Shown piece by piece: positions 1 to 18,487 of a DNA stretch of 32,000 nt. Source of the DNA: Candidatus Electrothrix sp. GW3-4 (GTDB taxonomy: Bacteria > Desulfobacterota > Desulfobulbia > Desulfobulbales > Desulfobulbaceae); assembly GCF_037902255.1 (NCBI RefSeq), contig NZ_CP147990.1, positions 1,320,001 through 1,352,000 of the forward strand, read 5' to 3'. A program made the translations under genes and the position numbers. Position 1 is the first letter of the stretch. Every line of letters starts with the position of its first letter. The notes beneath the pieces were generated by a model. That model was not told the DNA's origin, searched no databases, and saw nothing but the letters and a program-made list of their open reading frames with translations.

Positions 1-78
1 AGGAAGATGACAGGACAGGGGGAGGAAGATGAAAAGAGTGTCATGTGAGGAATGGTGGGGCCTTGGTATGCCCCCCGT

Positions 79-180
79 CATATGACTCGTATGACCCTGG
101 TCATATGACTCGTATGAGCCGGGGCATACCAACCCATATGAGCCTGGGCATATCAACCCGTATGAGCCTGGGCATACCGG
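79..180. repeat. Tandem direct repeat, about 4.3 units of 23/24 bp (catatgactcgtatgaccctggt / cataccaacccatatgagcctggg)
   Basis: Units read directly at 79-101, 102-124, 125-148 and 149-172, plus a partial unit at 173-180. An internal RTATGA motif recurs every ~11-12 bp. Confidence 0.85.
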
Positions 181-186
181 AAGCCT

Positions 187-214
187 GTAGGGGCACGGCA
201 TGCCGTGCCCCTAC
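187..214. repeat. Perfect 28-bp palindrome gtaggggcacggca|tgccgtgcccctac (REP-like hairpin family)
   Basis: The 14+14 nt are perfectly self-complementary. Related copies lie at 393-420, 567-595, 27739-27766 and 31346-31373. Confidence 0.9.
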
Positions 215-227
215 GCCACCCCGATAC

Positions 228-246
228 CCAGGGTGTTACCCTGGGC
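228..246. repeat. Short GC hairpin cccagggt-gtt-accctggg (second hairpin family)
   Basis: 8-bp stem with a 3-nt loop. Family members lie at 358-374, 31438-31456 and 31482-31500, with loops AAC or GTT (both orientations). Confidence 0.8.
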
Positions 247-357
247 TTATTTGTTGAACCTCTTTGGGGTTCTTTGCTTATGGGGATATTGGAATCTGCT
301 TGGCCTTGGACAGCACCTACAAACTGGAGAACCCTGAAAGGGTTCCGCTATACCAGG

Positions 358-374
358 CCGGGGTAACACCCCGG
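358..374. repeat. Short GC hairpin ccggggt-aac-accccgg, opposite orientation to the copy at 228-246
   Basis: 7-bp stem with a 3-nt loop. Preceded by tataccagg, as in the 31.4-kb copy (tatatcagc). Confidence 0.8.
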
Positions 375-392
375 ACTATCTGCCGCCTGCCT

Positions 393-420
393 GCACGGGC
401 ACGGCGCGCCGTGACCCTAC
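393..420. repeat. Degenerate copy of the REP-like palindrome (gcacgggcacggcgcgccgtgaccctac)
   Basis: Aligns with 187-214. Starts at the stop codon of the gene-end fragment at 417-488, the same arrangement as 567-595 with the intact gene. Confidence 0.7.
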
Positions 421-488
421 GCCTTCCCATCAATCCCCTCCAGAATGGCGCGGATGATGATTGCATTGCACCGCCGGGTGCGATGCAG
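417..488 (-). pseudogene. Orphan 3'-end fragment paralogous to the C-terminus of the CHAT-STAND-TPR gene
   Basis: The minus-strand translation ends ...PLHRTRRCNAIIIRAILEGIDGKA*. The intact gene ends ...PLDYTDAAIVHAILEGIEGDA*. DNA 423-460 aligns with 600-637 (caatcccctccagaatggcg). No upstream ORF body is present. Confidence 0.6.
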
Positions 489-566
489 CGGTGTCCCGGC
501 CCGGTGTTGAAACACCGGTCTATTACCGGGCTGTCCCTCCGGGACGCTGTTGCGAATCATCCGCCT

Positions 567-595
567 GTAGGGGCAACGGCACGCTGTGCCCCTAC
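567..595. terminator. REP-like hairpin overlapping the stop codon of the CHAT gene; probable terminator
   Basis: gtaggggcaacggcacgctgtgcccctac. The TAG stop (592-594, minus strand) forms the first bases of the stem. Confidence 0.6.
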
Positions 596-3500
596 GCATC
601 CCCCTCAATCCCCTCCAGAATGGCGTGGACAATGGCGGCATCCGTGTAATCCAGCGGCTCGGACAGGGTGGCCTCATCGCGTTCACCGTTGAGGATGCGC
701 TGGATAGCGGCGACCAGATTGGCCTTCGGCCCTTCGGCTATCTCGTTCAACCCTTGCTCCAGCTCCTTCCGCACGTCCGGGTCTTCTATAGCTTGCACCA
801 CCGCTACAATCAACTCCTCATACTGGTACAGCCCCTGCCGCCAGCCGGGAAAGGCCAAATACGCCTGCCTGCCCTTGGCCTGGTACTCGGCTGCCTGGCT
901 GCTCTCGCCCTGCTGGTCGGCGATGTGAGCCAGTGGCTTGTAGGTATTCCATATCTGCATTACTGCCGGGTCAAGGGTTTCGCTGATAGCCAGTCCTTCC
1001 TCAGCATAGCCACGGGCCTCGTCCAAACGGGCCGGGTCATTAGCCAGCAGGTCGGCAAGGTTGCTGAGGGTACGGGAGACATTGGGCCAGTCTTCCGCAC
1101 TTTGGAAGACTGTCAATGCTTTGCTATACCACTGTTCCGCCTCTGCCAAGCGGCCTGTGGCCTTGCAGAGTAAGGCGAGTTGGCCCCAGCTACCTCCAGC
1201 CGCATTGTTGCCAGCCAGCAAGCCTTGCTCTTCCTTCAGCCGAGCTGCCTGCCGATAGGCCTGCTCTGCTGCCTCCCAGTGCTTTGCCTGCTGATAGACA
1301 AGGCCGAGTTGGTGCCAGAACACCGCCTCGGAGGCAGGTTCGTTGATGCGCTGGAACAGGGTCAGGGCTTCCTTGTACCGCTCCTCTGCCTCAGCCAGCT
1401 CGTCCTGCTCCTTGGCCAAGGTGCCGAGCTGGCCGAGCACTACACCCGTCTGTCGCTTATCACCTTGCTCTTCAGCAATCTCCAAGCCTGCCTGATAGGC
1501 CTCTTTGGCCTTGCTGTACTCGCCTTGGGCAACCAGCACATCAGCCAGATCTGTCCAGGCAAGGCCGGTCTGCCGTCGCACCCCGTCGTCCTGCTCTAAC
1601 TGAGCCAGTTCCTCCAGCTCCTGCCGATAGCGTCGTTCCGCCTGCCCGGGCTGACCCTGTACCTCAAAGCAGCGGCCCAGTCTGCCCAGAGTCAGGCAGC
1701 GGTTATAGCTGGGCGTCTCCTCCAGTCCGGCCAGGATGTCCGCAAAGACCTGTGCTGCCGCTCCGGGCTGACCGTTCTGGCGAAGCTGCTCGCCAAGGTT
1801 ACTTTGGGCAAGATACCATGCCTGCGAACCCACGGCACTGCCTGCCCTGCCTGCTGCCTCAGTCAGTTCCTCAGCGTCCCGCCGCAGCCCGAAGAAGTAG
1901 AGAAACTTGTTGACCCTTTCGGCAAAGTCAACGCCCTCTTCAGTTTTGTCTGTTTGCAAGGCACTATGGACAGCCCGGAGCAGGTTCGGCAGCTCGTAGC
2001 GGGCAAGGGCGCGGGCCGCATGGGGATTTGTTCTATCCATCTTGTACAGCTCATTGGAAAGCCCGTAGTACGCCTGCCAATAGCGTGCCAGCAACTCGGC
2101 CTGCTCCTCCCTGTCCAGCCGCTGCCACAGGGCCGGGGCCAGGGTGGGGTGGAAGCGGAGAAAGGTTGCATCACTCTCCGCCACCCGCTCGGCCTGCATA
2201 AGTCCGGCTATGAGCAGGTGGTTGCGCAGTTCCTGCCAGTCAGCCTCCTTGAGGCCGGTTATATCCTCTACCATCGCTTCCAGACATCCCCCCTGAAACA
2301 CCCCCAACCGAGGCAGCCATTCCCGGCATTGCGCGGGCAGTCGCTCAATGGACAGCTCCAGGGAGGCAAGCAGGGACCGGTCTGCCTGATTCACCGGCTG
2401 CTCCTCCAGCAGGGCCTCCAGTCGTTCCCCCACATCAGCCGGGCCGCGTACCTTGAGCTGTTGGGCCAGCAGGGAGATGGACAGGGGATGAAAGCCCACC
2501 TTGCGGAACAGGTTGATCAGCACATCGCGGCGGGGTCGCTTGAGCCTGGTCCTGGGCGGCAGACGGCGCAGGCTGTCAAACCAGTCCACGGCATCGTGCG
2601 CTTGCAGGCCCGCCAGGGCAAGGGTTTGGTGCCTGTAGTCGCCTGCCAGGGGATAGCCGGGATGGTTGCAATCCGGTTGCCGGGAGGTGAGCAGCACCCG
2701 ACTGGCCCCGGCCTCAGACCAGGGCAGAGCCGCATCCAGCAGCTCGGCCAGGGTGTTGTCAGCAGCCAGGGACTCCAGGTTATCCAGGATCAGCAGGGTA
2801 GGGGTCTGTGCCAGCGATGCCTGGGCCGCATCCGCATCCACCAGGCTCTGCTCAAAGGTCGTGCTCATGGTCGCAACGGCCATGCTCACCGGGTCGCTGC
2901 TTTGAGAGGCTGCATAGCTGATCATGCAGACCCGCTCGAACAGATGCGTGCGGAGCAGCCAGCGGCCCGCTTCCAGGGCTAAGGCGGTCTTGCCCTGTCC
3001 CCCGAACCCGGTGATGGAGAAACGACGGCAGCCCTCCACGGCCAAGGCCCGTTCGATCTCCCACAGCTCCCTGCTGCGCCCGAAAAAGCCGGAGGGCTGG
3101 GGCTCAGGCAGATTGGAGAGCAGGGCAGGGCGGGGTTCCGGGCTTTCGTTGACCTCGGCACTGAGCAGGGCCATATCCGCCCCGCTCTGATACAGGGCAG
3201 GCAGGAACCAGTCGTACAGGTCCAGCCTGAACTCCTCGGCCAGTCCTGCCCCGCGCAGACGGATGCCGCGCTCTGGGTTAAAGAGGAGGTCGTGCCGGGC
3301 CTCGTCCAGGGATCGGGCCACGGTCGCGCCCACAAACAGGCTGGCATAGAACTCGGCAAAGAGCTGCTCCGCCGTGCTGACCAGCACGCTATGGGTCATG
3401 GCAATGACCGCTGGGATGCCCGCATGAACCAGCCGGGCCGCCACCCCGCTCATGGGATCTTTGCTGTCCATTGCTGCGGACTGACAGGCGGAAAGCACCA

Positions 3501-4374
3501 CCAGGCCTGCATGGTTCTGATGGAGCAGCTGACCCAAGGTCTCGGCCGCAACCCGGTCCTTGTTGCCCTCCTCATCCTCAAACAGGAGCCAGCCCTGCTG
3601 CCTGTCCGAAGCCGTGCCATCGCCCTTGAGATCATCGCCCTTGCCACCCCTGTCCGCCTCGCTGTCCCTGCCAAATACCCCGTGCCCGTCAAAGTGGATG
3701 ATGTCCACCGTGGGCAGTCGGGTATCGCGCAACCGCCTGCGCAGGGCATCCAGGGTCGGGGGCCGGAGAAACTCCACCTCCACCCGTGCCTGCTCCTGCT
3801 TTGCCAGGGCCGAGAGCACGGCATCGGCATCGCGGCGGGGATCAATGAAGGATGCGCCCTCCGGCCTGCTGACAATAAAGAGGAGATGCAGGCCAGTCTT
3901 GGGCGCACGGGGCTGCGGGGTACGGGCATCGCCAGCACTGGGCAGTCCCCGCCGGATGGAGATAGGCGGGTTCTCATTACAGAGATAGGAGCCTCCGGGC
4001 GTGTGGAGCAGCTCCCACGGCAGAGTGAGCACGGCAGGCTCATCAGCAGCAATACTGAGGACGCGGCCTTTCTCCCTACTCTCCAGGAAGCGGTCAAAGA
4101 GCTTGGCCGCCTTGCGCTCGCCTTCCAGAGCGGCCTCAAACAGGGCAGTGCCCCAGACCGGCAGCCGCTCCTGCACTGCGGCAGCCCGGGTATCATCGGG
4201 TTCAGCAGCATAGCTGGTGCCGTAGTCCTCCAGGTACCAGCGGAGTTCGTTGAGGTCTTTTTCTTCCAGGGGATTGATGAACTCGGCAGGTGGGCTGTCG
4301 CCCTCCTCGTTGCCGCGAAGGGAGACCATGACATGGCTGGCATCGGGAAAGGTCAGGCGCAGTTCTATGGACAT
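592..4374 (-). CDS. CHAT-domain protease / NB-ARC-type STAND NTPase / TPR-repeat protein (1260 aa)
   Basis: The ORF-track entry 592..4620 is trimmed to ATG 4374 (MSIELRLTF...), which is preceded by ccccAAGGAGagccccc. Caspase-like His/Cys dyad contexts: IIHFDGHG and LVVLSACQSA. Walker A is GFGGQGKTALA and Walker B is LLILDNLE. The C-terminal ~550 aa are TPR-like repeats. Confidence 0.9.
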   Translation of the reverse strand: MSIELRLTFPDASHVMVSLRGNEEGDSPPAEFINPLEEKDLNELRWYLEDYGTSYAAEPDDTRAAAVQERLPVWGTALFEAALEGERKAAKLFDRFLESREKGRVLSIAADEPAVLTLPWELLHTPGGSYLCNENPPISIRRGLPSAGDARTPQPRAPKTGLHLLFIVSRPEGASFIDPRRDADAVLSALAKQEQARVEVEFLRPPTLDALRRRLRDTRLPTVDIIHFDGHGVFGRDSEADRGGKGDDLKGDGTASDRQQGWLLFEDEEGNKDRVAAETLGQLLHQNHAGLVVLSACQSAAMDSKDPMSGVAARLVHAGIPAVIAMTHSVLVSTAEQLFAEFYASLFVGATVARSLDEARHDLLFNPERGIRLRGAGLAEEFRLDLYDWFLPALYQSGADMALLSAEVNESPEPRPALLSNLPEPQPSGFFGRSRELWEIERALAVEGCRRFSITGFGGQGKTALALEAGRWLLRTHLFERVCMISYAASQSSDPVSMAVATMSTTFEQSLVDADAAQASLAQTPTLLILDNLESLAADNTLAELLDAALPWSEAGASRVLLTSRQPDCNHPGYPLAGDYRHQTLALAGLQAHDAVDWFDSLRRLPPRTRLKRPRRDVLINLFRKVGFHPLSISLLAQQLKVRGPADVGERLEALLEEQPVNQADRSLLASLELSIERLPAQCREWLPRLGVFQGGCLEAMVEDITGLKEADWQELRNHLLIAGLMQAERVAESDATFLRFHPTLAPALWQRLDREEQAELLARYWQAYYGLSNELYKMDRTNPHAARALARYELPNLLRAVHSALQTDKTEEGVDFAERVNKFLYFFGLRRDAEELTEAAGRAGSAVGSQAWYLAQSNLGEQLRQNGQPGAAAQVFADILAGLEETPSYNRCLTLGRLGRCFEVQGQPGQAERRYRQELEELAQLEQDDGVRRQTGLAWTDLADVLVAQGEYSKAKEAYQAGLEIAEEQGDKRQTGVVLGQLGTLAKEQDELAEAEERYKEALTLFQRINEPASEAVFWHQLGLVYQQAKHWEAAEQAYRQAARLKEEQGLLAGNNAAGGSWGQLALLCKATGRLAEAEQWYSKALTVFQSAEDWPNVSRTLSNLADLLANDPARLDEARGYAEEGLAISETLDPAVMQIWNTYKPLAHIADQQGESSQAAEYQAKGRQAYLAFPGWRQGLYQYEELIVAVVQAIEDPDVRKELEQGLNEIAEGPKANLVAAIQRILNGERDEATLSEPLDYTDAAIVHAILEGIEGDA

Positions 4375-4439
4375 GGGGGCTCTCCTTGGGGATGAGTTGG
4401 ATAGGGGGCATACTGGGTTTATGCAGACATGAACGGGCG

Positions 4440-4668
4440 GTTGGGGTGGACACCAATGACCAGTTGGGGTAGACACCAATGACCAGTTGGGGTAGACACC
4501 AATGACCAGTTGGGGTAGACACCAATGGACCAGTTGGGGTAGACACCAATGGACCAGTTGGGGTAGACACCAATGGACCAGTTGGGGTAGACACCAATGA
4601 CCAGTTGGGGTGGACACCAATGACCAGTTGGGGTAGACACCAATGGACCAGTTGGGGTAGACACCAAT
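4440..4668. repeat. Tandem array of 9 full units plus 1 partial unit of 23/24 bp (gttggggtagacaccaatg(g)acca)
   Basis: Unit boundaries were counted directly. Lengths run 23,23,23,24,24,24,23,23,24, then a partial unit. Units 1 and 8 carry tgg instead of tag. Each unit holds the imperfect inverted repeat TTGGGGT-a-gACACCAA. The array lies 66 bp upstream of the CHAT gene start. Confidence 0.95.
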
Positions 4669-4681
4669 AAATGATCGCTGC

Positions 4682-5101
4682 CTATTCCTTGCAGATAGCC
4701 GTGCAGCCCAGGTGCATAACGATCACGCCCAGGGCCACAGCCAGCACCTGCAGGGCATTGCCGGAAAAGCCCATAGCTACCAGGAGGGCCCCAAAGGATT
4801 CCAGGACGGCTTTGCTGCTCAAGTTGCGATATCGCCGCCACTGGGCATGGAGCACCCCGCCTTCCTCGCAGAGGTCGCTATGGGCGGCCTGCTTAAAGCG
4901 CTGCCAGAAGGACTGCGGGTCCTCCCTGGTCACAACAGCAATGATCTGCCACTGTTTCGGGGTGCGTTCAGGAAGCTGCTCAGGTTGCTGAGCAGCCTTG
5001 CTCTCGCTAAGGAAAGAGGGGCTGTTCCGCAGCTCCTTGAGCTGCTCGTCCATATCAAGGCAAAGGGCTTCCAGCTGGTCCGGGCTAAAGGGGGTGGGCA
5101 T
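4682..5101 (-). CDS. Hypothetical small protein (139 aa) with a hydrophobic C-terminal segment
   Basis: The ATG is preceded by ccccAAGGAGcctgacacc, the same CCCCAAGGAG context as the CHAT gene. The C-terminus is SFGALLVAMGFSGNALQVLAVALGVIVMHLGCTAICKE. I recognise no family with confidence. Confidence 0.6.
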   Translation of the reverse strand: MPTPFSPDQLEALCLDMDEQLKELRNSPSFLSESKAAQQPEQLPERTPKQWQIIAVVTREDPQSFWQRFKQAAHSDLCEEGGVLHAQWRRYRNLSSKAVLESFGALLVAMGFSGNALQVLAVALGVIVMHLGCTAICKE

Positions 5102-5207
5102 GGTGTCAGGCTCCTTGGGGGCTGTGAGGAATGTATCTGCTATAGGCTGTCATGAATAACAGCTCAGGATTATACCAGAACAGGGCAGCACACCCCAAGG
5201 GAAAGTT

Positions 5208-8200
5208 TCAGAACAGGCTCAACTGCTTGCCTGCTCGCTTCTTCCGTTTCTTGACAACTCTGGGCGGCTCCTTGAGCAGCTCCGGCGGGATCTCGTTCAG
5301 GAAGGGGGAGGGCCTGCGCTCTTCAAGGCCGCTGAAGCCCTGCCGTTCCTCAGCCCCGGTGAGGTAGAGGACCTCAGCAGCACGGGTCATACCGACAAAG
5401 AAGAGGCGCCGTTCCTCACGAAGATGCTCCTCTTCCTCCTCTGGACTCAGCTCGCTGCGCGGGGTCAGGGGAAGGAGCCCCTCCTCGCAGCCCACCAGAA
5501 ACACGGCCCGGAACTCCAGCCCCTTGGCCGCATGCAGGGTGGTGAGGAGCACGGCCTCGGCCCGCTCATCATAGATCAGGCTGTCCTGATGCCTGCGCAG
5601 GTGCCGGGCAAAGGCAGACAGGGAGGGAGAGGAGGTTGCCATGCTGCGGAAGCGGACCAGTTCTGCTGTCTCCTGGTTAAGCTCGGGGACCGGCCCTGTT
5701 GCCTGAGAGTCCAGCTGGTACTGCGCATAGAGCAGGTCCACGGCCTGGGCAACAGACTTCTCTTTGAGGAGCCGGTCGGCAAGCTCCTGCATTGCCCTGA
5801 TGCCTTGCTGCACAGGCTTTGGCAGATCTACCCCCTGAGCATTGACAGCATCCGCAAGGGCGGTGAGCGGTGCCTTGTCCGGGTGCTCAGAGAGTACGGC
5901 CTCAGCAGCAGCCAGCCCCTTGGCTCCGATCCCCTGTTCCTGGCCAAGGAGGAAGAGCAGCTCCGCAGCATCAACCTGACCGGCAGCCAGCAGGCACCAG
6001 TAGGAGAGACGCTTGAGCTCGCCGCGCAGGTAGAAGGGCTGCATATCCACCACCTGACAGGGCAGGGTGCGTTCGGCCAGGGCCTGGGCAATGGTATCGG
6101 TCTGGCGGGAGGTGCGGTACAGTATAGCTATGTCTGAGAGGGCCAGGCTGCCCCCGTCCTCTGGCGCACCAATAAGGCGATCAATCTCCCGGTGGGAGGT
6201 ACCACCAATGAGTTGCTGGATCTGGCTGGCAATAAAGCTGGCCTCGGCCCTGGCACTGGGGGCAAGGTGGCGGAAGATGGTACCGGGCTGCTCTGAGGCT
6301 GCTTGAGGCGAGCAAGGGCGAACACAGGGATTCGCCCCTCCGCCAGCCTCTTTTTCCTCTTCATGATTAGTCGCAATCACCGCCCCTGCTGCCCGCAGAA
6401 TATCAGCCCCGCTGCGGTAGTTGGTGGCCAGCTGGTGAAACTCTGGTTCCTGCTCCGCGATAAAGCGGTGGAACCAGGCAGGTCGGGAGCCACGAAAGCC
6501 GTAGATGGCCTGGTCCGGGTCGCCAATGGCAAAGACCGTGGCGGTCTCGGCCAGCAGGCGCACCAAGTGGTACTGGGCCGCATTGAGGTCCTGGAACTCA
6601 TCCACCAGCAGATGGGCCGTGGCCTGGCGCAGCTCTTCAGTAAACCCTGTATCAGTGTGAAGCAGGGCAGTACAGGCAGGCACGATCTCGTCCAGGTCCA
6701 GCAGGTTATGCTCACGGAGATAGTGGAAATAGGCCTGCAAGGGGAGGGGACAAGCGCTGGGTTCCGGCAGGACCGCCTGCTCGGCCAGAAAGAGGCCCGC
6801 CTCCTGCCGGAGCTGTCTGCGCTCCCGTTCCGCAAGCTCGGGATACTGCCTGCGGAAGACCCAGCCCCGCATCTCCGGGCCAGCCAGTTGCAGCTCTGGA
6901 TCATGGCGGCGCAGCCAATGGAGGCAAAAGCCGTGAAAGGTATCCACCCGCACGGCCTGCTCTGCTGCTTTCTGTACAGCAGCCAGGCGCTGACGGAGTT
7001 CTTCTGCGGCCTTATTGGTAAAGGTGATTACGGTGATGCGATCCTGTCCCCCTTCCAGCAAGCGGAGGACCCGTTGCACCAGGGTGTGGGTTTTGCCCGT
7101 ACCCGGCCCGGCCTGAACAATGACCCGCCGGGCCTTGCTATCCACAGCAGCTTGTTGCTCCGGGTTGAGTTCCTTCCTGGCCTGCATGGGGCTGACCTGG
7201 CTCTTCCGCCTGCGGACCACTGCCTTTCGGGGGCTCTTCTTGCGAGGCTTGGCCGGGGTCATCCCGAAGAGGTTGAGCTGGCCTGCCAGCTGATTCCGCT
7301 CCTCCTCCTCAAAGACCCGGATTACCCCGAACTCGCCGTCAAAGCCGGGCCTGCGGATGACCTTGTTCTCCCGTACCCGCTGGATCGCTGTGCCCAGCAG
7401 GGGCGAGGCCGTGTTGAGCTCCTCTACCGGGGTATCCAGCAGGATCTGAAACTCGGAGCCGAAGCTCTTGATCAGCTTGCTGTAGACCGCACCCACCTTC
7501 TTGGTGGCTGGCCCGCAGCTGAAGAGCTCGCCCAGCATCTCGGCCAGGGGAATCAGGCTATGCACTGCTGGAGAACCCTCGGGCCATTGCGGCTTGTCCC
7601 GGTCTGCCAGTTCCATGACCCGGTAGAGTACCCCAATGGTCATGGGGCGGCCGCATTCCGGGCAGAGGCCCTCGACCTCCACGGTCTGGGCTGGTTCCAG
7701 ACAGACCCCGCATTTGCGGTGGCCGTCGCAATGGTACTTGCCCTCTTCCGGGTAGAATTCCACCGTGGCCTGGAAGCGCTGCTTGCCCTGGTCGTCCACC
7801 GGTCTGCGCAGGGCCTCCTTAAGGGCAGGGAAGCTCAGCTCGGTGGTGAATATATTGGCCTCGCGGCCCAGCTTGGACGGGGAATGGCAGTCGGAGTTGG
7901 AGATCAGGGAGAAGCGGTCCAGGGCCGATATATGGCGGTTCATCTCCGGGTCAGAGGACAGGCCGGTCTCCAGGGCAAAGATCTCGCTGCTCAGGTCGTC
8001 AAAGCATTCCTCAATAGCATCAAAGCCAGACTTAGAACCGAACAGGGAGAACCAGGGGGTCCAGATATGGGCAGGCACCAGGAAGCCCTCCGGGGCCTGC
8101 TCCAGCAGGATCTCCAGCAGGATCTTGGAGTCCAGGCCCAGGATGGGCCGTCCGTCCGACTCCAGGTTGCCGATCCCGGCCAGGACTGTGTTGATGCGGC

Positions 8201-8579
8201 GGGCAGCGTCCAGGTCCGGGACATAGAGCAGGTTATGGATCTTGCGCACCTTACCGCCTCGCTTATAGATGGAGCTGATCTCCGCACTGAGGAGGAAACG
8301 GATTTGCGAGCAGTCCGGCTGTACTCCCGGTGGCAGAATTGGGGCCAGCTCGGTAAAGTCGGGCTGCTCCTTGAGGCGAAAGAGACCGGGTTCTGCCGGT
8401 TCCAGATTATCGGCCAAGTGGGCAAACCAGCCCGGATGGGTGAAGTCGCCAGTGGCAACAACATCAATGCCCTTGATGGCGGCCCAGGCCGCCAGACCGT
8501 GCAGATTGCTGGCCTTGCTGGTGGCCCTGGAGTAGCGGGAGTGGATGTGGAGGTCGGCGATATAGGACATGGAGGGCAT
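5208..8579 (-). CDS. Fusion protein: N-terminal EndoQ-like PHP phosphoesterase with Zn ribbon, plus C-terminal UvrD/PcrA-type SF1 helicase (1123 aa)
   Basis: PHP/EndoQ-type motifs: DLHIHSRYSRATS, TGDFTHP, PAHIWTPW, SNSDCHSP, and the ribbon CDGHRKCGVC...CPECG. Helicase motifs: AGPGTGKTHTL, LLVDEFQDLN, TNYRS, TLHAAKGLEFRAVFLVG, VGMTRA. The start may be M1 (8579) or M4 (8570). Confidence 0.88.
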   Translation of the reverse strand: MPSMSYIADLHIHSRYSRATSKASNLHGLAAWAAIKGIDVVATGDFTHPGWFAHLADNLEPAEPGLFRLKEQPDFTELAPILPPGVQPDCSQIRFLLSAEISSIYKRGGKVRKIHNLLYVPDLDAARRINTVLAGIGNLESDGRPILGLDSKILLEILLEQAPEGFLVPAHIWTPWFSLFGSKSGFDAIEECFDDLSSEIFALETGLSSDPEMNRHISALDRFSLISNSDCHSPSKLGREANIFTTELSFPALKEALRRPVDDQGKQRFQATVEFYPEEGKYHCDGHRKCGVCLEPAQTVEVEGLCPECGRPMTIGVLYRVMELADRDKPQWPEGSPAVHSLIPLAEMLGELFSCGPATKKVGAVYSKLIKSFGSEFQILLDTPVEELNTASPLLGTAIQRVRENKVIRRPGFDGEFGVIRVFEEEERNQLAGQLNLFGMTPAKPRKKSPRKAVVRRRKSQVSPMQARKELNPEQQAAVDSKARRVIVQAGPGTGKTHTLVQRVLRLLEGGQDRITVITFTNKAAEELRQRLAAVQKAAEQAVRVDTFHGFCLHWLRRHDPELQLAGPEMRGWVFRRQYPELAERERRQLRQEAGLFLAEQAVLPEPSACPLPLQAYFHYLREHNLLDLDEIVPACTALLHTDTGFTEELRQATAHLLVDEFQDLNAAQYHLVRLLAETATVFAIGDPDQAIYGFRGSRPAWFHRFIAEQEPEFHQLATNYRSGADILRAAGAVIATNHEEEKEAGGGANPCVRPCSPQAASEQPGTIFRHLAPSARAEASFIASQIQQLIGGTSHREIDRLIGAPEDGGSLALSDIAILYRTSRQTDTIAQALAERTLPCQVVDMQPFYLRGELKRLSYWCLLAAGQVDAAELLFLLGQEQGIGAKGLAAAEAVLSEHPDKAPLTALADAVNAQGVDLPKPVQQGIRAMQELADRLLKEKSVAQAVDLLYAQYQLDSQATGPVPELNQETAELVRFRSMATSSPSLSAFARHLRRHQDSLIYDERAEAVLLTTLHAAKGLEFRAVFLVGCEEGLLPLTPRSELSPEEEEEHLREERRLFFVGMTRAAEVLYLTGAEERQGFSGLEERRPSPFLNEIPPELLKEPPRVVKKRKKRAGKQLSLF

Positions 8580-8728
8580 GGTGTCTGCTGCTGGCTGGGG
8601 TTGGTCGGTTCCCTGATGTCGGGGAGGTTGCGAGGGCGCAGCTTAAAGCCAAGGCGGGGGGATGTCAAGAGAAAGGGGAGGGGGCGGATAGCTGCATTCA
8701 TGCAGGAGATGGGAGCATTCACGGTCCA

Positions 8729-9127
8729 TTACAGCCAATTCTCCATCCGCAGCCCGGCAACTCGCTCAAACTCCCTCAGATTATTCGTGACAACAACCAA
8801 GCCTTCGCTCCGGGCATGTCCAGAGATATGCAAATCATTCACCTCGATCGGTGTGCCACGTCGTTCCAGGTCGGCACGGATATCGCCATAATGCTCAGCC
8901 GCTTTTCTGCCGTATTCCAAGATCTCCAGCCGGGAGGCGAAATCCTCCACCTGCCGCAGGTTATGTCCTGGCCTGGCAGATTTTTCCACCCCGTGGATCA
9001 ACTCGGCAAAAGTGATGGAGCTGATGCACATCTGGCCAGCATGGCGGTTGAAGGTGTCCAGTATCTCCAGCGGTCGCCGTTTGATGACGTAGATAGCAAT
9101 GTTGGTGTCGAGCATGTATTTCAACAT
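8729..9127 (-). CDS. vapC: PIN-domain toxin VapC
   Basis: MLDTNIAIY..., FAEL, and NDLHISGHA...VVVTNN give the typical PIN acidic residues. ATGA overlap with the upstream antitoxin gene. Confidence 0.9.
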   Translation of the reverse strand: MLKYMLDTNIAIYVIKRRPLEILDTFNRHAGQMCISSITFAELIHGVEKSARPGHNLRQVEDFASRLEILEYGRKAAEHYGDIRADLERRGTPIEVNDLHISGHARSEGLVVVTNNLREFERVAGLRMENWL

Positions 9128-9360
9128 CAGAACGCTTCCCTTTCCTGTTGTTCCTGCGAAGCGCGTTCTGTCATGAAATCATCTGTCACTTTTTCGTCGG
9201 ACTTGAAAAAACTGTCCCAAGTATTTTCAACCGGTGAAAGTACACGATCTTTTCCTATAACTCGCACGATAACCTTTTTCACTGAGCTAGGAAAACGGGT
9301 TTCTACTGGCAGCCTGACCGCCTGGGTTCGATTATTAATAAAAACTGATCCAGTACGCAT
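9127..9360 (-). CDS. vapB: AbrB/SpoVT-type antitoxin VapB (77 aa)
   Basis: The track ORF 9127..9429 is trimmed to ATG 9360 (MRTGSVFINNRTQAVRLPVE...), with GGAGG upstream. The stop overlaps the vapC start by 4 bp. Confidence 0.85.
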   Translation of the reverse strand: MRTGSVFINNRTQAVRLPVETRFPSSVKKVIVRVIGKDRVLSPVENTWDSFFKSDEKVTDDFMTERASQEQQEREAF

Positions 9361-9452
9361 AAGAAACCTCCTTGGAGATAATGTGTATACTGAAAGTATA
9401 TAGCATGTCGTCGTGAGCGACAAGGACAAGTTCTATTGGTGTGTGCAGGTTG

Positions 9453-9541
9453 TTGGCCTTGCTGATGGCACGGGAGGAGCGGAAGTGGATGTGGAGGGCA
9501 GCGCTAAAGGAGATGGTGTGCGCTGCTGGCAGGCCCGCTTT
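9453..9541 (-). pseudogene. Degenerate duplicate of the 5' end (about codons 1-27 plus ~17 bp of leader) of the PHP-UvrD gene
   Basis: 9453-9541 aligns with 8500-8596, including an identical run agtggatgtggagg. It translates ISFSAALHIHFRSSRAISKANNLH against MSYIADLHIHSRYSRATSKASNLH. There is no ATG and no downstream gene body. Confidence 0.75.
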
Positions 9542-9661
9542 GTCGTTTTGGACCACTGTTTGTGGCCGTTATGCTAGTGCTCTGTAAAATCTAAATTTTA
9601 GGGTAGCGTATTTAAAATTAATGTAGCATGTTGTCCGAAAAAAAAATTGAAAGAGGATTTC

Positions 9662-10105
9662 ATGCCAAAAAAATACATTGTCCAATTGACTCCAAAAGAA
9701 CGCTGTCATTTACAGGAGGTTATCAAAAAGCTTTCGGGGGGCAGCCAGAAAGTCCGTCGTGCTCACATCTTATTGAAAGCTGATGCAAATGGCCCCTGTT
9801 GGAAAGACAGCAGGATAGCAGAAGCATTCAACTGTAGGACAAAAACGGTTGAGAACATCCGTCAAAATTTTGTTTTGCACGGTTTTCAACAGGCTCTTGA
9901 CGGAAAAAAACGTGCAACCCCGCCTACTCCGAAACTATTGAATGGGGAGCAGGAGGTTAAAATCATTGCCACTCGTCTTGGTTCACCTCCGCCGGGATAC
10001 GCAAATTGGTCACTGCGCCTTTTAGCCCGACATGTTGTTGAATTGGAAATAGTTCCGTCGATCAGCCATGAAACTATTCGCCAAGTAATAAAAAAAACGG
10101 GATGA
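9662..10105 (+). CDS. IS630 transposase, N-terminal HTH part (orfA)
   Basis: The ATG at 9662 follows aagagga. Helix-turn-helix-like sequence is present. The ORF ends just after the A8 run at 10090-10097. Confidence 0.8.
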   Translation: MPKKYIVQLTPKERCHLQEVIKKLSGGSQKVRRAHILLKADANGPCWKDSRIAEAFNCRTKTVENIRQNFVLHGFQQALDGKKRATPPTPKLLNGEQEVKIIATRLGSPPPGYANWSLRLLARHVVELEIVPSISHETIRQVIKKTG

Positions 10106-10797
10106 ACAACCGGAAAATCCAATACTGGGTTATTCCACCAAAACACGATGCGGAATTCGTGGCCAACATGGAAGATGTGATAGAGGTTTATGAAAGACCG
10201 TATAATCCTAATCATCCTTTTCTTTGTATGGACGAACAACCAGTTCAGCTGATAAAGGAAACTCGTTTACCTATCCCGGCAACTAAAAATCATGCTAAAC
10301 GCGTTGATTATGAGTATGAGCGTAACGGAACAGCCAGTATTTTCATGTTCACCGAGCCTCTTTCAGGCTGGCGTGAAGCCACAGCTCGTCCTCGGCGGAC
10401 TAAAACAGATTGGGCGATCGAAGTGGCTCGCCTCCTTGAAGGTCGCTATGCAGAATGTGAAAAGATAACGTTGGTTTGCGATAATCTCAACACCCATACA
10501 AAGGGAGCTTTTTATGAGGCTTTTCCTCCTGAACGTGCTCGTGCATTAGTACGCCGGATTGAATTTTGTTACACACCGAAACATGGTAGCTGGCTCAATA
10601 TAGCAGAAAACGAATTGAGCTCCATGACTCGACAATGTCTTGCCAATCGTCGTATAGGAGATATCGAGACGTTACAGAAAGAGATTGCCGCATGGTCAAG
10701 CGATGTGAATAACACTCAACGTGGTGTTGAGTGGCAAATGAAAATTTCTGATGCCCGGTGCAAATTAAAATCCGTTTACCCTAAAATTAAGTCGTGA
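10102..10797 (+). CDS. IS630 transposase, DDE catalytic part (orfB), in the -1 frame relative to orfA
   Basis: LCMDEQP, VCDNLNTH and WLNIAENELS give DDE spacing. A -1 slip on A8 would read ...IKKKNGMNNRKIQYWVIPP, which resembles the KKNxxKPW...W.IP junction typical of the family. Confidence 0.85.
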   Translation: MNNRKIQYWVIPPKHDAEFVANMEDVIEVYERPYNPNHPFLCMDEQPVQLIKETRLPIPATKNHAKRVDYEYERNGTASIFMFTEPLSGWREATARPRRTKTDWAIEVARLLEGRYAECEKITLVCDNLNTHTKGAFYEAFPPERARALVRRIEFCYTPKHGSWLNIAENELSSMTRQCLANRRIGDIETLQKEIAAWSSDVNNTQRGVEWQMKISDARCKLKSVYPKIKS

Positions 10798-10813
10798 CAG
10801 AGCACTAGTCTCA

Positions 10814-11104
10814 TCAGCAAAAATGCCAGCCGGTGCGCTCCCAGGGTGACATTTCACTCGGTGACTCACCGTAATATCGTAGCAGCCCCAGGTCTGTGTC
10901 TTTCTCTTCTCCGAGTTCCTGCCCGTGGACGACTTCTCCTTTATAGCTGAGTGTTCCGTATTGATGTTCGCTACGGGTGCCGACCGCACGGTAAGAGAGG
11001 CGTAATTGCCAGCCGCCTTCCTGGAAAAGGGTGTCTGGTTTGACTGGTGAAGAGGGCCTGTTGTTGATCGCAGCAATGACTTGCTCCCAGTCTTTGGGAT
11101 ACAT
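10814..11104 (-). CDS. Hypothetical protein (96 aa)
   Basis: An ORF of ~53% GC directly downstream of small-ORF copy A. Its stop lies 8 nt from the IS630 end. No family recognised. Confidence 0.45.
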   Translation of the reverse strand: MYPKDWEQVIAAINNRPSSPVKPDTLFQEGGWQLRLSYRAVGTRSEHQYGTLSYKGEVVHGQELGEEKDTDLGLLRYYGESPSEMSPWERTGWHFC

Positions 11105-11119
11105 GCTTTCCTTGTCCCG

Positions 11120-11274
11120 TCATCGTTCAAGGTCCGCTGTCATTTTTGCGGCAAGAAGGGACAGTTCGTCTTGGTCGTAGCGTTGCAGGAGTTTTTCAGG
11201 GCGCTCTGTTGGACAACCTGGTGGATATATTCGTTGAACTCGGGACGGGACATTTTTGTATGGTAGTCTTTCAT
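11120..11274 (-). pseudogene. Small-ORF copy A, frameshifted relative to copy B
   Basis: The frame-corrected translation is MKDYHTKMSRPEFNEYIHQVVQQSALK/KLLQRYDQDELSLLAAKMTADLER. It has a 1-nt deletion relative to copy B (gcaggagtttttcaggg vs gcaggagtttattcaaggt). Confidence 0.5.
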
Positions 11275-11303
11275 GGTAGGTTTTGGGGTGAAAGGTGTGG
11301 GAA

Positions 11304-11654
11304 TTAAGTAGGTCTGTTTGAAGTCCTTATTGTTACAAAGTGGAACCCGGTTTCGCTTTCACCTGAAAAATTCTCTTCTTTTAGGTTAAAACCTACTTCA
11401 TTAGCAAGAGGGTGAAAACGATTATATGACTGTTCATCAAAAGCATATGCGGCACCCAATTTTATCCCATTGATTATCTCACCAAATCTGGTTTTCTTTA
11501 TTGTTGTTTTCTTTGCAGATTCTGGTGATACAAAATTTATGAAGTTTTTCATCTCTTGTTCTGAACCAGAGATTACGCAAGCATCTCCATCGCAAATGAC
11601 TTCTGTTTTTGATTTATAAGCGAAATAGCCGATTACCTTGCTGTCACGATGCAT
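11304..11654 (-). CDS. Hypothetical protein (116 aa), low GC
   Basis: The ORF is co-oriented with and 66 bp downstream of the 380-aa ORF. No family recognised. Confidence 0.5.
   Translation of the reverse strand: MHRDSKVIGYFAYKSKTEVICDGDACVISGSEQEMKNFINFVSPESAKKTTIKKTRFGEIINGIKLGAAYAFDEQSYNRFHPLANEVGFNLKEENFSGESETGFHFVTIRTSNRPT
11305..11322. repeat. 17-18 bp direct repeat aagtaggtctgtttgaa (copy 1)
   Basis: Identical to 12885-12902. A degenerate version (agtaggtttggag) lies at ~13172-13184. It overlaps the last codons of the 116-aa ORF. Confidence 0.8.
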
Positions 11655-11720
11655 ATTTATACCTTTTTTGTTTTATGGTTTAACGTGCGTCCCCGATTTA
11701 CCGAAAAATGAAAGAAAGAT

Positions 11721-12863
11721 TTACAGGTTAGCTGAATCAACACGACGTATAAAACTTGCCTTGCGCCTATGCTCTTCCTGAATGGTCATCAGTTTTGATT
11801 TGAACAAACTGGTTGCATTGTTCTTTTTGGCAAGATCCTTCAAATCAATCAGGAGTTTAACCGCTTCATCATAGCTTTTGGGGGTTCTGGTCAAAATAAG
11901 GGTGTTAACTTGCTCCCATATTTCATTTTCTCTTTCGGCCAGTCCGTTCAAATATTTTTCTCTTGCGATGGCCGCTTCCTTTTCCTTGCGTGCTTTTTCC
12001 TTTGCTTTCTGTTCAGCGATCTGCCGGTACTTTTCTTTTGTGTATGCCTCTGCTTTTTGGAGGAGTTCCATTACAGTTCGTGATTTTTTCCCATTACTTT
12101 TGGTATCTTGTGTTGAGAGGGTCTTGCTAAACCGCTGCAACAGTTCGTTTCCTATATGAGGATCGCCGTCATTGATGAGCCGAAAAATAATTGTATCTTT
12201 TTCGCTACTGGGAAGCCCGTCTATCCAGATTTTGAGCTTTTGATCATTTTGAATTGATTTTTGTTCTGCAATACTACTTTCAGCGGCCACCTGGATAAGA
12301 TCCTTATCGAGCCGCATGAAATCTGCGAAACTTTCAAGGGAAGCATTTAAATTTCCAAGATTTGCAGGAACAGGCGGTTCTTCTTCATCGTCTTCTAGCT
12401 CATCCATCTGCGCACAAAAGAGCCAGGCAAGATATAAGCATCGATAGTCCCCCTGGATAAGATCGGAACGTAATGAAATCAATGGAGAGAGATAACCTTC
12501 ACCTTCTTCCCAATCATAATCTTCGGTTTCAGATGTAAAATCAAAGATCAGGTAATCTCCCTTTTCATAGATAGTCCAACTATCTCCGATGCAATATTTA
12601 CTTGCCAGATCCAAATCTATTAATTTTCGTGGAATTCTCAGAAGAAGCTGATGGATTCCCCAGTTGGAGACATATAAAAAGGCATCAAAATATTTTTCTA
12701 CCAGTTTTAACGGGGTACCTTTGAAGTTGCCATAGTTGTATTCATTGACAAAACTTGTGGAGGTGATTTGCGCTCTGGAGGATATATCCCGAAGCACTTG
12801 TTGATCTTTTTGAGATAAAGGTTTGTCTATGGCCTGAAATTCATAATACTGGTATTCACTCAT
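11721..12863 (-). CDS. Hypothetical protein (380 aa): MSEYQYYEFQAID N-terminus, acidic linker, Lys/Glu-rich coiled-coil C-terminal region
   Basis: Long low-GC ORF. The N-terminal YYEF motif resembles a conserved-hypothetical family I cannot name with confidence. The C-terminal part contains KEKYRQIAEQKAKEKARKEKEAAIAREKY. Confidence 0.6.
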   Translation of the reverse strand: MSEYQYYEFQAIDKPLSQKDQQVLRDISSRAQITSTSFVNEYNYGNFKGTPLKLVEKYFDAFLYVSNWGIHQLLLRIPRKLIDLDLASKYCIGDSWTIYEKGDYLIFDFTSETEDYDWEEGEGYLSPLISLRSDLIQGDYRCLYLAWLFCAQMDELEDDEEEPPVPANLGNLNASLESFADFMRLDKDLIQVAAESSIAEQKSIQNDQKLKIWIDGLPSSEKDTIIFRLINDGDPHIGNELLQRFSKTLSTQDTKSNGKKSRTVMELLQKAEAYTKEKYRQIAEQKAKEKARKEKEAAIAREKYLNGLAERENEIWEQVNTLILTRTPKSYDEAVKLLIDLKDLAKKNNATSLFKSKLMTIQEEHRRKASFIRRVDSANL

Positions 12864-12884
12864 ATTTGTTCCTTATATTAGTCT

Positions 12885-12902
12885 CAAGTAGGTCTGTTTG
12901 AA
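12885..12902. repeat. 17-18 bp direct repeat aagtaggtctgtttgaa (copy 2)
   Basis: Identical to 11305-11322. Lies 22 bp upstream of the 380-aa ORF start. Confidence 0.8.
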
Positions 12903-12970
12903 TACAACGAAAACGGATATTCTCTCGACCCAATGAAAAATCTTCACGAAACGCACGCATGTTACCTCAA

Positions 12971-13108
12971 TCATTCCATGCAGGCAAGATGGGTCAGTTC
13001 GTCTTGGTCGTAGAGTTGCAGGAGTTTATTCAAGGTGCCCTGTTGGACAACGTGGCGGATGTATTCGTTCTTGGGCAGGGACAGTTTTATGTGGTAATTT
13101 TTGGGCAT
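12971..13108 (-). CDS. Small-ORF copy B (45 aa), possible ribbon-helix-helix-like regulator
   Basis: MPKNYHIKLSLPKNEYIRHVVQQGTLNKLLQLYDQDELTHLACME. It is below the ORF-track length cutoff and was found through DNA similarity of ~12975-13190 to 11128-11322. The fold guess is weak. Confidence 0.4.
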   Translation of the reverse strand: MPKNYHIKLSLPKNEYIRHVVQQGTLNKLLQLYDQDELTHLACME

Positions 13109-13267
13109 GCTTCATATGCTGCCGTTAACAGTTTTTCATGGTAGTCTTTCGAGGCGTGGTGTATGAAGGGAGTGTGGGATAGTAGGTTTGGAGTATAGGG
13201 CAATATAACATATGGTGGATTCGCAATAGCCCTTTTTGTCTGATTTTTTTTCATTTTACGAGTTCAT

Positions 13268-14182
13268 ATGGAATTTTCCCCATCAAATGTAGCATTTAAT
13301 CGACATGAATCTTTTTCTCTCCGTTTTGGATGGTTGACGAAGGGGTTTAAGGCATTTCAAGATAATCCTGACTTTTTTTCTGCTCCAGATGCCGTAGTGC
13401 AACTTGGTGTTGGTAAAAACATGGTAAATTCAATTCGTCACTGGCTGAGAGCCGCCCAATTGATTGAAATAAATAATGATGAAAAAAGGGTGACCCGTAT
13501 CGGTGAGGCTATCTTTGATAGAAAAAGAGGATATGATCCATATTTAGAAGATGAAGCCACTATCTGGCTCATACATTGGCTAGTTGCGACTAACCCGATT
13601 CATGCGACATCTTGGTACTGGTTTTTTAATCGTTTCCATAAGACTGAGTTTACTAGCCAAGAAGTGTATACGGCCTTGCTTGATTTTTCGCAAGAAAATA
13701 TCACCGGAAAGTACTCCGAGAATTCAATAAAAAATGACTGTGCCGTTTTACTGAGAACCTATGTCCAATCAAGAGGAGATACAAAAATACCAGCAGAAGA
13801 AGCTCTTGATTCACCTCTGTCATTGCTGAAGCTTATCACCTATACCAAAGCGACTAAAACATACCAATCTTGTCTAAAACGACGCGACGACCTACCTATA
13901 GGTATTGTAGGGTATGCTTTGGCTGATTTATTTAGGCAGCGAAAGATAAAAGAAATTTCTATGGAAGATCTTGTTTACAGTAGTGACGGACAAGTTGCCC
14001 CCGGCCCAATTTTTCGGTTGTCGGAAAACGATCTGATCGCTAAACTTGAAGATCTCGTTTATTATCTTCCTAACATTTTTAAAACATCCGAGAGCGCAGG
14101 TATTCATCAACTTTACCTCTTACAGGATATTGACCCGTTGATCTATATTAAAGAGCATTACAAGACCCAACAACAGGGATAA
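13268..14182 (+). CDS. sspB: DUF4007-family protein, SspB-like (DNA phosphorothioation nickase component)
   Basis: The N-terminus is FNRHESFSLRFGWLTKGF...VGKNMVNSIRHWL. It is the first gene of a tightly packed 4-gene operon with a P-loop ATPase, a PAPS-reductase-like gene and a DUF262/DUF1524 gene. Confidence 0.7.
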   Translation: MEFSPSNVAFNRHESFSLRFGWLTKGFKAFQDNPDFFSAPDAVVQLGVGKNMVNSIRHWLRAAQLIEINNDEKRVTRIGEAIFDRKRGYDPYLEDEATIWLIHWLVATNPIHATSWYWFFNRFHKTEFTSQEVYTALLDFSQENITGKYSENSIKNDCAVLLRTYVQSRGDTKIPAEEALDSPLSLLKLITYTKATKTYQSCLKRRDDLPIGIVGYALADLFRQRKIKEISMEDLVYSSDGQVAPGPIFRLSENDLIAKLEDLVYYLPNIFKTSESAGIHQLYLLQDIDPLIYIKEHYKTQQQG

Positions 14183-14187
14183 CCGGC

Positions 14188-17100: not shown

Positions 17101-17682
17101 ATAGCTCATTCTCTTTTACCAGACATGAAGAGAAAGCTTGAACTGTCGGAATTAAGGAGCAAACTGTGTGCAACATATGAGGATCTTGATCAATATACCA
17201 TTGATCATAAAGAGTTGATTCCCTTTATTGAACATCTATCAGAATCTAAAGCAAAAGATGAACTGTGGTTTAATCGGTTGCTGCTCTTTCTGGCGGGGCG
17301 ATCCTCTGAAAAGTGGAGGGATATTGATCGTGATAACGCTTTGAAAAAACTTACTGACTTGTCAAGGCGGCTGCTAGATCTTAACTTTTTACAAAGCTCA
17401 TATAAACGGCAAAAGATAAAAATAGAAGGTGATTTTGATGTGATCTGGCTGAGAACAATGCGACATGGTACAAATTCTGATTGTGATGAACTTGTAAGGA
17501 TTGATGAGACGGCAAAGGAATATATTAGTAAAAATAAAAAACAGTTGAAAAGCTTATTACAAGAACTGGGCGATGAAAGTACCCGTCTTGCCATGCTTGC
17601 GGAACTATTGGATGATACGCTAGTTGAGAGGAAGAAAAATAAAATAAAGAAACGGCAAAAGCCGAAAAGGGTCAATGAGTAA
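14188..17682 (+). CDS. sspC: Large P-loop ATPase (1164 aa), SspC-like
   Basis: Walker A is LIGPYGSGKSSF and Walker B is VLIVFDELGKFLE. It has a 5-bp gap to sspB and an 8-bp overlap with the next gene. Confidence 0.65.
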   Translation: MSLQDCIVIDTVYTRSINLERDIDSAAIVEAYIPTTRSLYTLRKLANTFNKNNTPRSWALIGPYGSGKSSFAVYLSHLLYGTNDNNTERVFSSLANHSQGLIEKFINYTDGTKGFVSILLTGSPDPLIPRFLLSLQKSVYSFWRDIPGPPPTIIAKIDEALQEGTVNTHQVIGLVEMLRQAVEKAGGAGVLIVFDELGKFLEYEARHYEANDIYLLQSLAELAVTGHKTNIYVFTLMHQGFEQYARGLGEDLRNEWSKIQGRFENIPFLESTEQTLHIISRAFKNRLTERDKDRIATNCKKIAAVLDKEKALPGGMHRNLAADLFAQCYPLHPVSVLLLPILCQKMAQNERTLFSYLGSKEQHGLRYSLSAIDKIGEWVMPWEIFDYFILNQPSVLTDPITHRRWAEVITAIERLGDVPTNYFELLKTIGLLNIIGAQGGFKASKKIISLCATSKRAATMAANGLIESAVLQFRKFSNEYRVWQGSDFDLDAAIKDELDQMGYFELCDELNKRKPLQPIVARRHTIETGSLRYFSPSFVDVNTYRKKSNQAGQERIVFCLVESAEEINNAYDKVVPYFSAQDVVGIYRNGVQLREAVAEVIALHRVENKCQEVNSDPVAQREFKDRLAVAEQLEDELLSALLETPQEAEWFWRQEKLTVTGKREHQQKLSTILDAVYRDTPYIHNELINREKPSAQANAARNKLVMAMINHLDEPELGIKKFPPEKAIYLAFLYSTGLHQQRKDGCWELKPPSRNNKCNLYPVWQEIDEFLESTKSTPRSFDELTIRLRVPPFGIKAGLLPLLYLTVFLAKQHELALYENSIYTPYITTQHIERFMKKPSCFTVQLLQIAGIRASLFQEYAKVLFGRNNKQEATLHTIAKPLAKFVANLDEYAKRTNRISPAGKKVRKAIQLAKSPTDLLFVKLPNACGFPAVDNDDIKESQIEGFAASLVEAIRELRDCHKKMLNELQELIAHSLLPDMKRKLELSELRSKLCATYEDLDQYTIDHKELIPFIEHLSESKAKDELWFNRLLLFLAGRSSEKWRDIDRDNALKKLTDLSRRLLDLNFLQSSYKRQKIKIEGDFDVIWLRTMRHGTNSDCDELVRIDETAKEYISKNKKQLKSLLQELGDESTRLAMLAELLDDTLVERKKNKIKKRQKPKRVNE

Positions 17683-18463: not shown

Positions 18464-18487
18464 TAATCTGTGAGCGGAGTTTTAAAA

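Follow-up and report, generated by a model that had tools for sequence, protein, structure and literature searches.

A 23-bp tandem array at a CHAT-STAND operon junction in a cable bacterium is homologous to the arrays of one clade of HU-like genes

The window, that is the whole stretch of 32,000 nucleotides analysed here (G000:C1:1320001-1352000), is chromosomal and lies on the single 4.64-Mb contig of Candidatus Electrothrix sp. GW3-4 (genome G000). The genes described around the array are all encoded on the minus strand. In window positions, the features are:

79 to 176, no strand assigned: second array downstream of the CHAT gene, period 24, 4.2 copies (Tandem Repeats Finder)
592 to 4374, minus strand: CHAT-STAND-TPR gene, 1260 aa (CHAT, E=2.8e-30; TPR_12, TPR_MalT)
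4375 to 4416, minus strand: leader of the CHAT gene; its ribosome-binding site is AAGGAG at 4382-4387, and promoter prediction was negative
4417 to 4434, minus strand: degenerate eleventh (terminal) unit, GTTCATGTCTGCATAAAC on the sense strand, part of the same element as the array
4440 to 4668, no strand assigned: ten tandem units (Tandem Repeats Finder and in-register alignment with the arrays of an HU-like gene clade)
4669 to 4681, minus strand: junction of small-ORF stop and array, GCAGCGATCATTTA in sense, in which GATCAT is retained from the ancestral stop/start sequence TGATCATG
4682 to 5101, minus strand: 139-aa ORF with a hydrophobic C-terminus (membrane-tailed), no family match, conserved partner of CHAT
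5208 to 8579, minus strand: PHP-UvrD helicase
8729 to 9127, minus strand: PIN toxin (vapC-like)

Between the stop codon of the 139-aa ORF (4682-4684) and the ATG of the CHAT gene (4374) lie 307 nt, 229 of which belong to the array. Tandem Repeats Finder placed it at 4440-4668 with a period of 23, 9.8 copies, 97% matches and a score of 408. Unit starts are spaced by 23, 23, 23, 24, 24, 24, 23, 23 and 24 bp, and an 18-bp partial unit follows. An earlier description made from the letters alone (the sequence-only reading) had given the same array, spacings and partial unit, which the program and the unit starts reproduced exactly; the TGG variants it had noticed in units 1 and 8 were recovered as well. 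On the plus strand the unit reads GTTGGGGT(A/G)GACACCAATG(G)ACCA, on the gene-sense strand ATTGGTGTC(T/C)ACCCCAAC + TGGTC(C). Each unit consists of an imperfect dyad of 16-18 bp and a linker of 5-6 nt. Written as ATTGGTG-TCTA-CCCCAAC plus TGGTC(C), the dyad has one arm mismatch, whereas the arms of the cognate arrays described below are perfect. The inverted repeat emphasized earlier, TTGGGGT-AG-ACACCAA, is present with six of seven arm pairs, but taken alone it barely exceeds chance (P about 0.08 (0.083) versus shuffles, marginal for a 23-mer). All variation within the array is confined to the would-be loop or spacer. Units of 23 bp disrupt any repeated reading frame; an upstream TTG extension of the CHAT ORF is the one frame open across the array. 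The sequence-only reading had dismissed CRISPR because spacers are lacking. This holds: the units abut, and the real CRISPR arrays of G000 have repeats of 36-37 nt and lie elsewhere.

In both Candidatus Electrothrix and Electronema, the 139-aa ORF is conserved directly 5′ of the CHAT orthologs. At three loci, one in Electrothrix sp. YB6 and one in each of two Electronema genomes, only 2 nt separate the small-ORF stop from the CHAT start, with the sequence TGATCATG or TGACCATG, which indicates that a tightly coupled bicistron was the ancestral state. Other Electrothrix genomes carry REP hairpins of the GTAG type at this junction, and among the orthologous loci compared an array was present in G000 only. 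The closest CHAT orthologs (80-86% identical) have REP hairpins and no array at the junction; thus, the array is not needed for the operon. Prediction of sigma-70-like promoters and terminators in window 4200-5400 returned none. Transcription of the array within the small-ORF/CHAT operon message is therefore probable. It does lie 5′ of CHAT, as had been described, but in an intercistronic operon spacer and not in a promoter region. With PADLOC and NCBIfam, the CHAT protein gave only generic TPR or SAVED_CHAT matches, and neither the small ORF nor the HU-like protein introduced below gave any.

We then analysed the tandem arrays of the whole genome with Tandem Repeats Finder. With at least 2.8 copies, 22 arrays had a period of 21, 17 of 23, 4 of 24 and one each of 22 and 20, and none was found at periods 17-19 or 25-32; the periods show a sharp preference for two values. 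The 22 with a period of exactly 21 are mostly intergenic and form a second, separate class of phased repeats. Those of period 22-24, also 22 in number, are intergenic in 20 cases according to crude gene calls and occur in co-directional, convergent and divergent settings. The sequence-only reading had named dispersal at many unrelated loci as an observation that would speak against it. We found the array class at about 22 loci and the unit family of the CHAT array at three, so that this objection holds in part.

An all-against-all BLAST of the ORFs flanking the arrays did not reveal a small protein gene shared beside every array. Instead, seven arrays were located directly 5′ of paralogous genes of about 360 aa, which are 41-55% identical to each other except for one 93% pair with a truncated copy. 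By tblastn, nine arrays of period 22-24 (at least 2.8 copies) were found 5′ of 11 copies of this HU-like gene. That is, 9 of the 21 non-coding arrays of period 22-24 lie at most about 260 bp 5′ of the 11 HU-like genes (hypergeometric P=3.7e-20). A tenth array, with 2.1 copies, precedes the HU-like paralog at 2,372,452. We also considered a class of 'mini-hairpin' repeats and rejected it, since a dyad test on the 22 arrays of G000 gave P<0.05 for only five, with P=0.083 for the unit studied here. It is linkage to the HU-like gene, and not hairpins, that unites the array class. The notion of a feature specific to the CHAT gene was given up accordingly: the array is a displaced member of a class that is genus-wide.

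Matches to a resident HU-linked array were also found for 7-8 of the 13 orphan arrays in G000. The core of the second array in the window (79-176), TATGAGCCTGGGCATAC, resembles the core TATGAGCCTAGTCATAC of the array at the HU-like paralog 4,202,642, with only 15/23 matches over the whole unit (P=0.045). Arrays of the class were also found 3′ of CHAT orthologs in several other cable-bacteria genomes, where they belong to two different unit families.

The HU-like genes encode proteins of about 360 aa with HU-like and Ig-like domains and the architecture HU-DNA_bdg + DUF4469 (HU-HIG type). The N-terminus matches HU-HIG and Pfam HU-DNA_bdg, the latter with E=6.7e-6, which falls slightly short of the curated cut-off. 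The family profile matches PDB 4FMR (hmmsearch E=0.002), which is also the best match of an AlphaFold model (27 sequences, pLDDT 88.8; Foldseek E=4e-12); the remainder of the model is Ig-like. Given the HU-DNA_bdg match and the 4FMR-like model, DNA binding by the protein is plausible. A search at E<=1e-5 gave 783 relatives of the paralog at 2,372,452, and database relatives are named 'DNA-binding domain-containing protein' or 'DUF4469 domain-containing protein'. We counted 12 family matches in G000 and 1-17 in nine of the 13 genomes of the same genus. Two genomes from a second genus of cable bacteria had 31 and 19, whereas the search of the remaining 26 genomes from the family and order gave none. 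Conserved neighbours of the HU-like genes were looked for and not found. Two paralogs in G000 (G000:C1:956635-957697 and 3941462-3941983) are broken, one by a frameshift and one by truncation, and the truncated one retains an array of 8.8 units.

Gene and array are arranged in a regular manner. In nine cable-bacteria genomes, an array of period 22-24 ends 96-208 nt before the ATG of 27 of the 32 HU-like genes, and 29 of the 32 have a TTGACA-N17-TAnnnT promoter near position -87 whose -35 element is preceded by the array. At 4 of 11 HU loci the upstream neighbour is divergently oriented, so read-through cannot transcribe those home arrays in sense direction. A significant dyad core of 16-18 bp was detected in 12 of 27 HU-linked arrays; a core of about 18 bp together with a linker of about 5 bp yields the period of 23 bp. 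The array types of other HU-like paralogs include CACTATAGTG. Unit similarity is at chance level (about 0.46) for paralogs less than 65% identical and reaches 0.90 for proteins more than 80% identical. Overall, unit and protein similarity are correlated (Mantel r=0.745, 0 of 2000 permutations), a correlation that partly reflects plain vertical inheritance of whole loci.

The HU-HIG clade was described from Bacteroidetes, and its lineage-specific expansions were noted (Burroughs et al. 2017, PMC5499826). From the 4FMR structure the same authors argued that the DNA cleft is occluded by the Ig domain and that a role of HU-HIG proteins as sequence-specific factors is unlikely, and they suggested that RNA or protein, and not DNA, may be bound by the Ig-fused ones; repeats or a cognate DNA element are not mentioned for the clade. 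Our literature search returned no publication on DUF4469 and, for HU-HIG, only this paper and one mention in a preprint. A search for cable bacteria and tandem repeats gave nothing relevant, and the 23-bp array class of the HU-like genes was not found in print.

The cognate candidate for the CHAT array is the paralog G000:C1:2372452-2373525 (358 aa), whose own array is located at 2,372,266. There, the promoter TTGACA-N17-TATGAT is preceded by two units, GTTGGGGTCTACCCCTAC-TGGGC and then GTTGGGGTCTACCCCAAC-AGACC; the two sites lie 23 bp apart, with GTTGGGGTCTACCCCAAC as the paralog's own site. The CHAT unit in sense, ATTGGTGTCTACCCCAAC-TGGTC, agrees with this site at 17 of 18 core positions and at 18-19 of 23 over the whole unit (P<0.005); one half-site of each CHAT unit differs from it. 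The clade has four further members, one in G003 (73% identity) and three on metagenome contigs (66-71%). Their arrays consist of 4-5 units with the sequence (G/A)TTGGTG-N4-CACCAAC, and in some of them ATCA stands in front. In all four, the last unit is followed by the element GTTCATG, which in the array of the G000 paralog itself reads GTTCCTG. The CHAT array has the 3′ flank ...GTTCATGTCTGCAT as in the clade, and ATCA before it (GATCATTTA-...) as in some members. Unit by unit and including the flanks, it aligns in register with the five clade arrays. We thus conclude with high confidence that the CHAT array is homologous to the home arrays of this one clade of HU-like genes.

Near the CHAT array we found no remnant of HU-like coding sequence; the next gene is CHAT-STAND, without a promoter-like site. 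The array is not upstream of an HU-like gene promoter, which makes it an orphan and not a home copy. In our interpretation, it is a displaced and recently expanded copy of an HU-linked array. An ancestral adjacency of CHAT and HU genes was rejected: the TPR gene beside an HU gene at one locus (L085) is only 21-25% similar to the TPR part of CHAT. The right arm CCCCAA is common to both orphan arrays and the HU-linked array in G000, versus CACCAA or a variant in the other clade members. In the home array the left arm is also changed, to TTGGGG, and the palindrome is restored. The orphan array looks like an intermediate state of this arm change. The common CCCCAA arm fits copying within the G000 lineage, or a concerted change together with the binder. 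The landing pad for a DNA-binding protein, which the sequence-only reading had proposed, now has a candidate binder, suggested by arrays of the same geometry and family at HU-like promoters; the binding itself is what we infer from them.

A second array of the same family, with 6 units, is located at C1:300647-300781 within a 4.9-kb duplicate of the CHAT locus. At this paralogous locus 365 bp (window 4730-5094, most of the 139-aa ORF) are deleted, while the upstream region of this partner gene is kept. The two loci (window 61-5204 versus G000:C1:296016-300955) form a mosaic. Identity is 100% in window 287-1536 and 4059-4308, 98.5% in 4309-4439 and 81-97% in most of the middle, which includes a poorly aligned stretch at about 2037-2308. 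This pattern suggests that gene conversion is ongoing at the ends of the CHAT loci and that the central NTPase/sensor part is kept different. The arrays have 10 and 6 units although the surrounding tract is 98.5-100% identical, and the CHAT-proximal TGG variant appears a second time, internally, in the array of 10 units. Given recent gene conversion over the array flank, the difference of four units means that copy number changes much faster than point substitutions accumulate. Both observations bear out the expansion by unequal recombination that had been read from the unit pattern. Among 60 related genomes no array of this unit was detected. Two scans of metagenome contigs did not find it either, and an exact-protein look-up of the 139-aa ORF identified no other assembly that carries the small ORF.

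On these grounds we propose that the CHAT array is an orphan HU-linked site array, bound by the cognate HU-like paralog and copied into an operon junction, a reading to which we give slightly better than even chances. The array with short flanks would have been copied into the junction of a small ORF/CHAT-STAND-TPR operon that was formerly translationally coupled. Slippage or unequal exchange would then have expanded or contracted it, to 10 units here and 6 at the paralogous locus. Dimers of the G000:C1:2372452-2373525 product would bind each unit on double-stranded DNA, and as many as ten or eleven dimers would line up between the small ORF and CHAT. Such a row could block or modulate transcription into CHAT, and it would also soak up the binder. 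The parts of this proposal differ in strength. The HU-like protein encoded 1 Mb away is the probable candidate for the binder. With moderate confidence, the CHAT array probably serves as a multi-site DNA docking platform for this paralog. That it affects the expression of CHAT at all is speculative.

The serious rival is a neutral, slippage-driven relic: a minisatellite that arose as an ectopic copy of an HU array or by local duplication and drifts by slippage or unequal exchange, with nothing binding to effect. We hold this to be possible, if clearly less probable. It would agree with the closest CHAT orthologs, which do without the array and have REP hairpins or 2 nt at the junction, and with the 10 versus 6 units within a freshly converted tract. 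Unit identity is 97% here but 69-91% in the majority of HU-linked arrays, a contrast that suggests recent expansion and not long maintenance, and the unit was not found in metagenome contigs. A required binder is further questioned by G033 (92% complete). This genome keeps a well-kept 5-unit orphan in the nifD-nifK spacer, while the cognate HU gene appears to be deleted: the home locus is reduced to one unit and a promoter relic before an unrelated gene, and the best paralog is 66% identical, with an array of another type. It follows that orphans can survive without the binder. On the other side, the origin from an HU-gene array is not in doubt, which makes a locally born repeat unlikely. Two degenerate units of the same unit family occur in the CHAT leader of G033, in a second genus, and match the G003 HU array at about 36 of 40 bases. 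In G000 the derived arm change is common to orphan and HU-linked arrays, and more than half of the orphan arrays (7-8 of 13) still match a resident HU-linked array. The nifD-nifK array (L013, G033:C6:24554-24661) has five 23-bp units (TTGGTGCAGACACCAAG) of the CHAT-array unit family and adjoins a REP pair.

An element acting at the RNA level, either a row of mini-hairpins that stabilises or attenuates the message as REP/BIME do or an RNA ligand of the Ig-fused HU-like protein, could be expected from the intercistronic position with no promoter or terminator detected between the genes, from the REP hairpins at orthologous junctions and from variation restricted to the would-be loop or spacer. 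RNA or protein binding has in addition been suggested for Ig-fused HU-HIG proteins (PMC5499826). But the 321-nt leader RNA folds no better than shuffles (z=+0.20), the sense-strand hairpins of the units (-2.0 to -2.5 kcal/mol) are weaker than those of their own shuffles, and a search of window 1-9600 with Rfam covariance models (E<=1) gave no relevant match. These three results also speak against the structured 5′ UTR that had been suggested for the array. Moreover, HU-linked arrays lie upstream of a conserved -35 element, 4 of 11 with a divergent upstream gene, and the nifD-nifK orphan of G033 is oppositely oriented relative to transcription. We regard an RNA element as the most improbable of the explanations considered. 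Hardly more probable is a copy-number switch, in which unit number, through cistron spacing or the count of roadblocks, would set the expression of CHAT and vary within populations, as in a contingency locus that governs a gene of cell death or defence with high costs. Two copies that differ by four units between flanks of 98.5-100% identity would suit it, as would the block pattern and the internal TGG unit, which indicate unequal exchange. Known contingency loci have units of 1-7 nt; here, units of 23/24 bp in a non-coding spacer shift neither a reading frame nor a promoter spacer, the unit was absent from the metagenome contigs scanned and the exact-protein look-up identified the small ORF in no other assembly.

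A bolder version of the preferred reading, a bound orphan array, would extend it to a network of 12-31 private HU-Ig proteins per cable-bacteria genome, each with its own 18-bp palindrome. The orphan arrays would then be real trans targets that gate unrelated operons (abortive-infection-type CHAT-STAND, nifDK) by a multi-dimer roadblock or a nucleoid tether, with a unit number tuned by slippage. We consider this extension unlikely.

Among known systems, the Ig-fused subclade of HU-HIG (PF18291/PF14848 + DUF4469 PF14734; 4FMR, BVU_2165) has the same architecture and fold as the candidate binder, and the candidate's family is likewise lineage-expanded, fast-diverging and without conserved operon partners. 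The difference is that here each paralog has a private 23-bp array, with orphan copies elsewhere in the genome. Plasmid iterons with Rep, ParR/parC and phage operator sets are tandem arrays bound by the product of their own gene. They resemble the HU-linked arrays as direct repeats of about two helical turns with dyad cores, placed beside the promoter of the presumed binder, and further copies at other places can serve as targets or sinks. However, we found no replication or partition gene and no origin features here, the setting is chromosomal, there are 12-31 protein-array pairs per genome, and the CHAT array is far from the binder gene. The iteron-like reading, in the sense of plasmid or phage iterons, was dropped, since the neighbours of this chromosomal site are the small ORF, CHAT-STAND and the PHP-UvrD helicase.

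Mycobacterial MIRU are intercistronic minisatellites of 40-100 bp that often overlap small ORFs. Like them, the CHAT array occupies the spacer of a two-gene operon, its unit occurs at several loci and unit number differs between copies; its units, however, are of 23/24 bp and have a candidate cognate family of DNA-binding genes, whereas none is known for MIRU. REP/BIME elements have the site type in common with the array (small-ORF/CHAT junctions) and are also dispersed, intergenic and dyad-symmetric. In contrast, the CHAT units lack a stable hairpin and the GTAG-stem-CTAC design of the REPs in G000 and are strictly tandem with a 23-bp period. With sense-strand hairpins of -2.0 to -2.5 kcal/mol, z=+0.20 for the array and no stable GTAG-headed hairpins, assignment to REP/BIME was rejected. 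A type III toxin-antitoxin system of the ToxIN kind, in which repeats of about 34-40 nt in an RNA precede a terminator and the gene of an endoribonuclease toxin, was rejected as well: the units are of 23/24 nt, no terminator was found, the downstream gene encodes a CHAT protease-STAND protein and the orthologs lack the array.

HU-HIG/DUF4469 is a large family without known function or ligand, and the published analysis opposed sequence-specific reading of DNA. The CHAT array offers a defined and testable protein-DNA pair, with ten repeats of an 18-bp palindrome on one side and a protein of 358 aa on the other, and G000, with 10, 6 and 2 sites in one genome, represents a natural experiment. For annotation, the 23-bp arrays of cable bacteria are best described as home or orphan copies of HU-gene arrays, and not as gene-specific regulators, hairpin repeats or degenerate CRISPRs.

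Further repeats were observed in the window. REP-type palindromes of the form GTAG...CTAC (GTAGGGGCACGGCATGCCGTGCCCCTAC), with many near-identical copies in the genome, are located at 183-217, 389-454 and 563-629. An element that starts at 9572-10000 and extends beyond is present in at least six copies of 99.8-100% identity and is presumably an insertion sequence; it borders a block of 40% GC (9000-21000), with 62% GC on the left. Finally, a direct repeat of 84% identity (8499-8572 versus 9443-9516) brackets the region of the PIN (vapC-like) gene.
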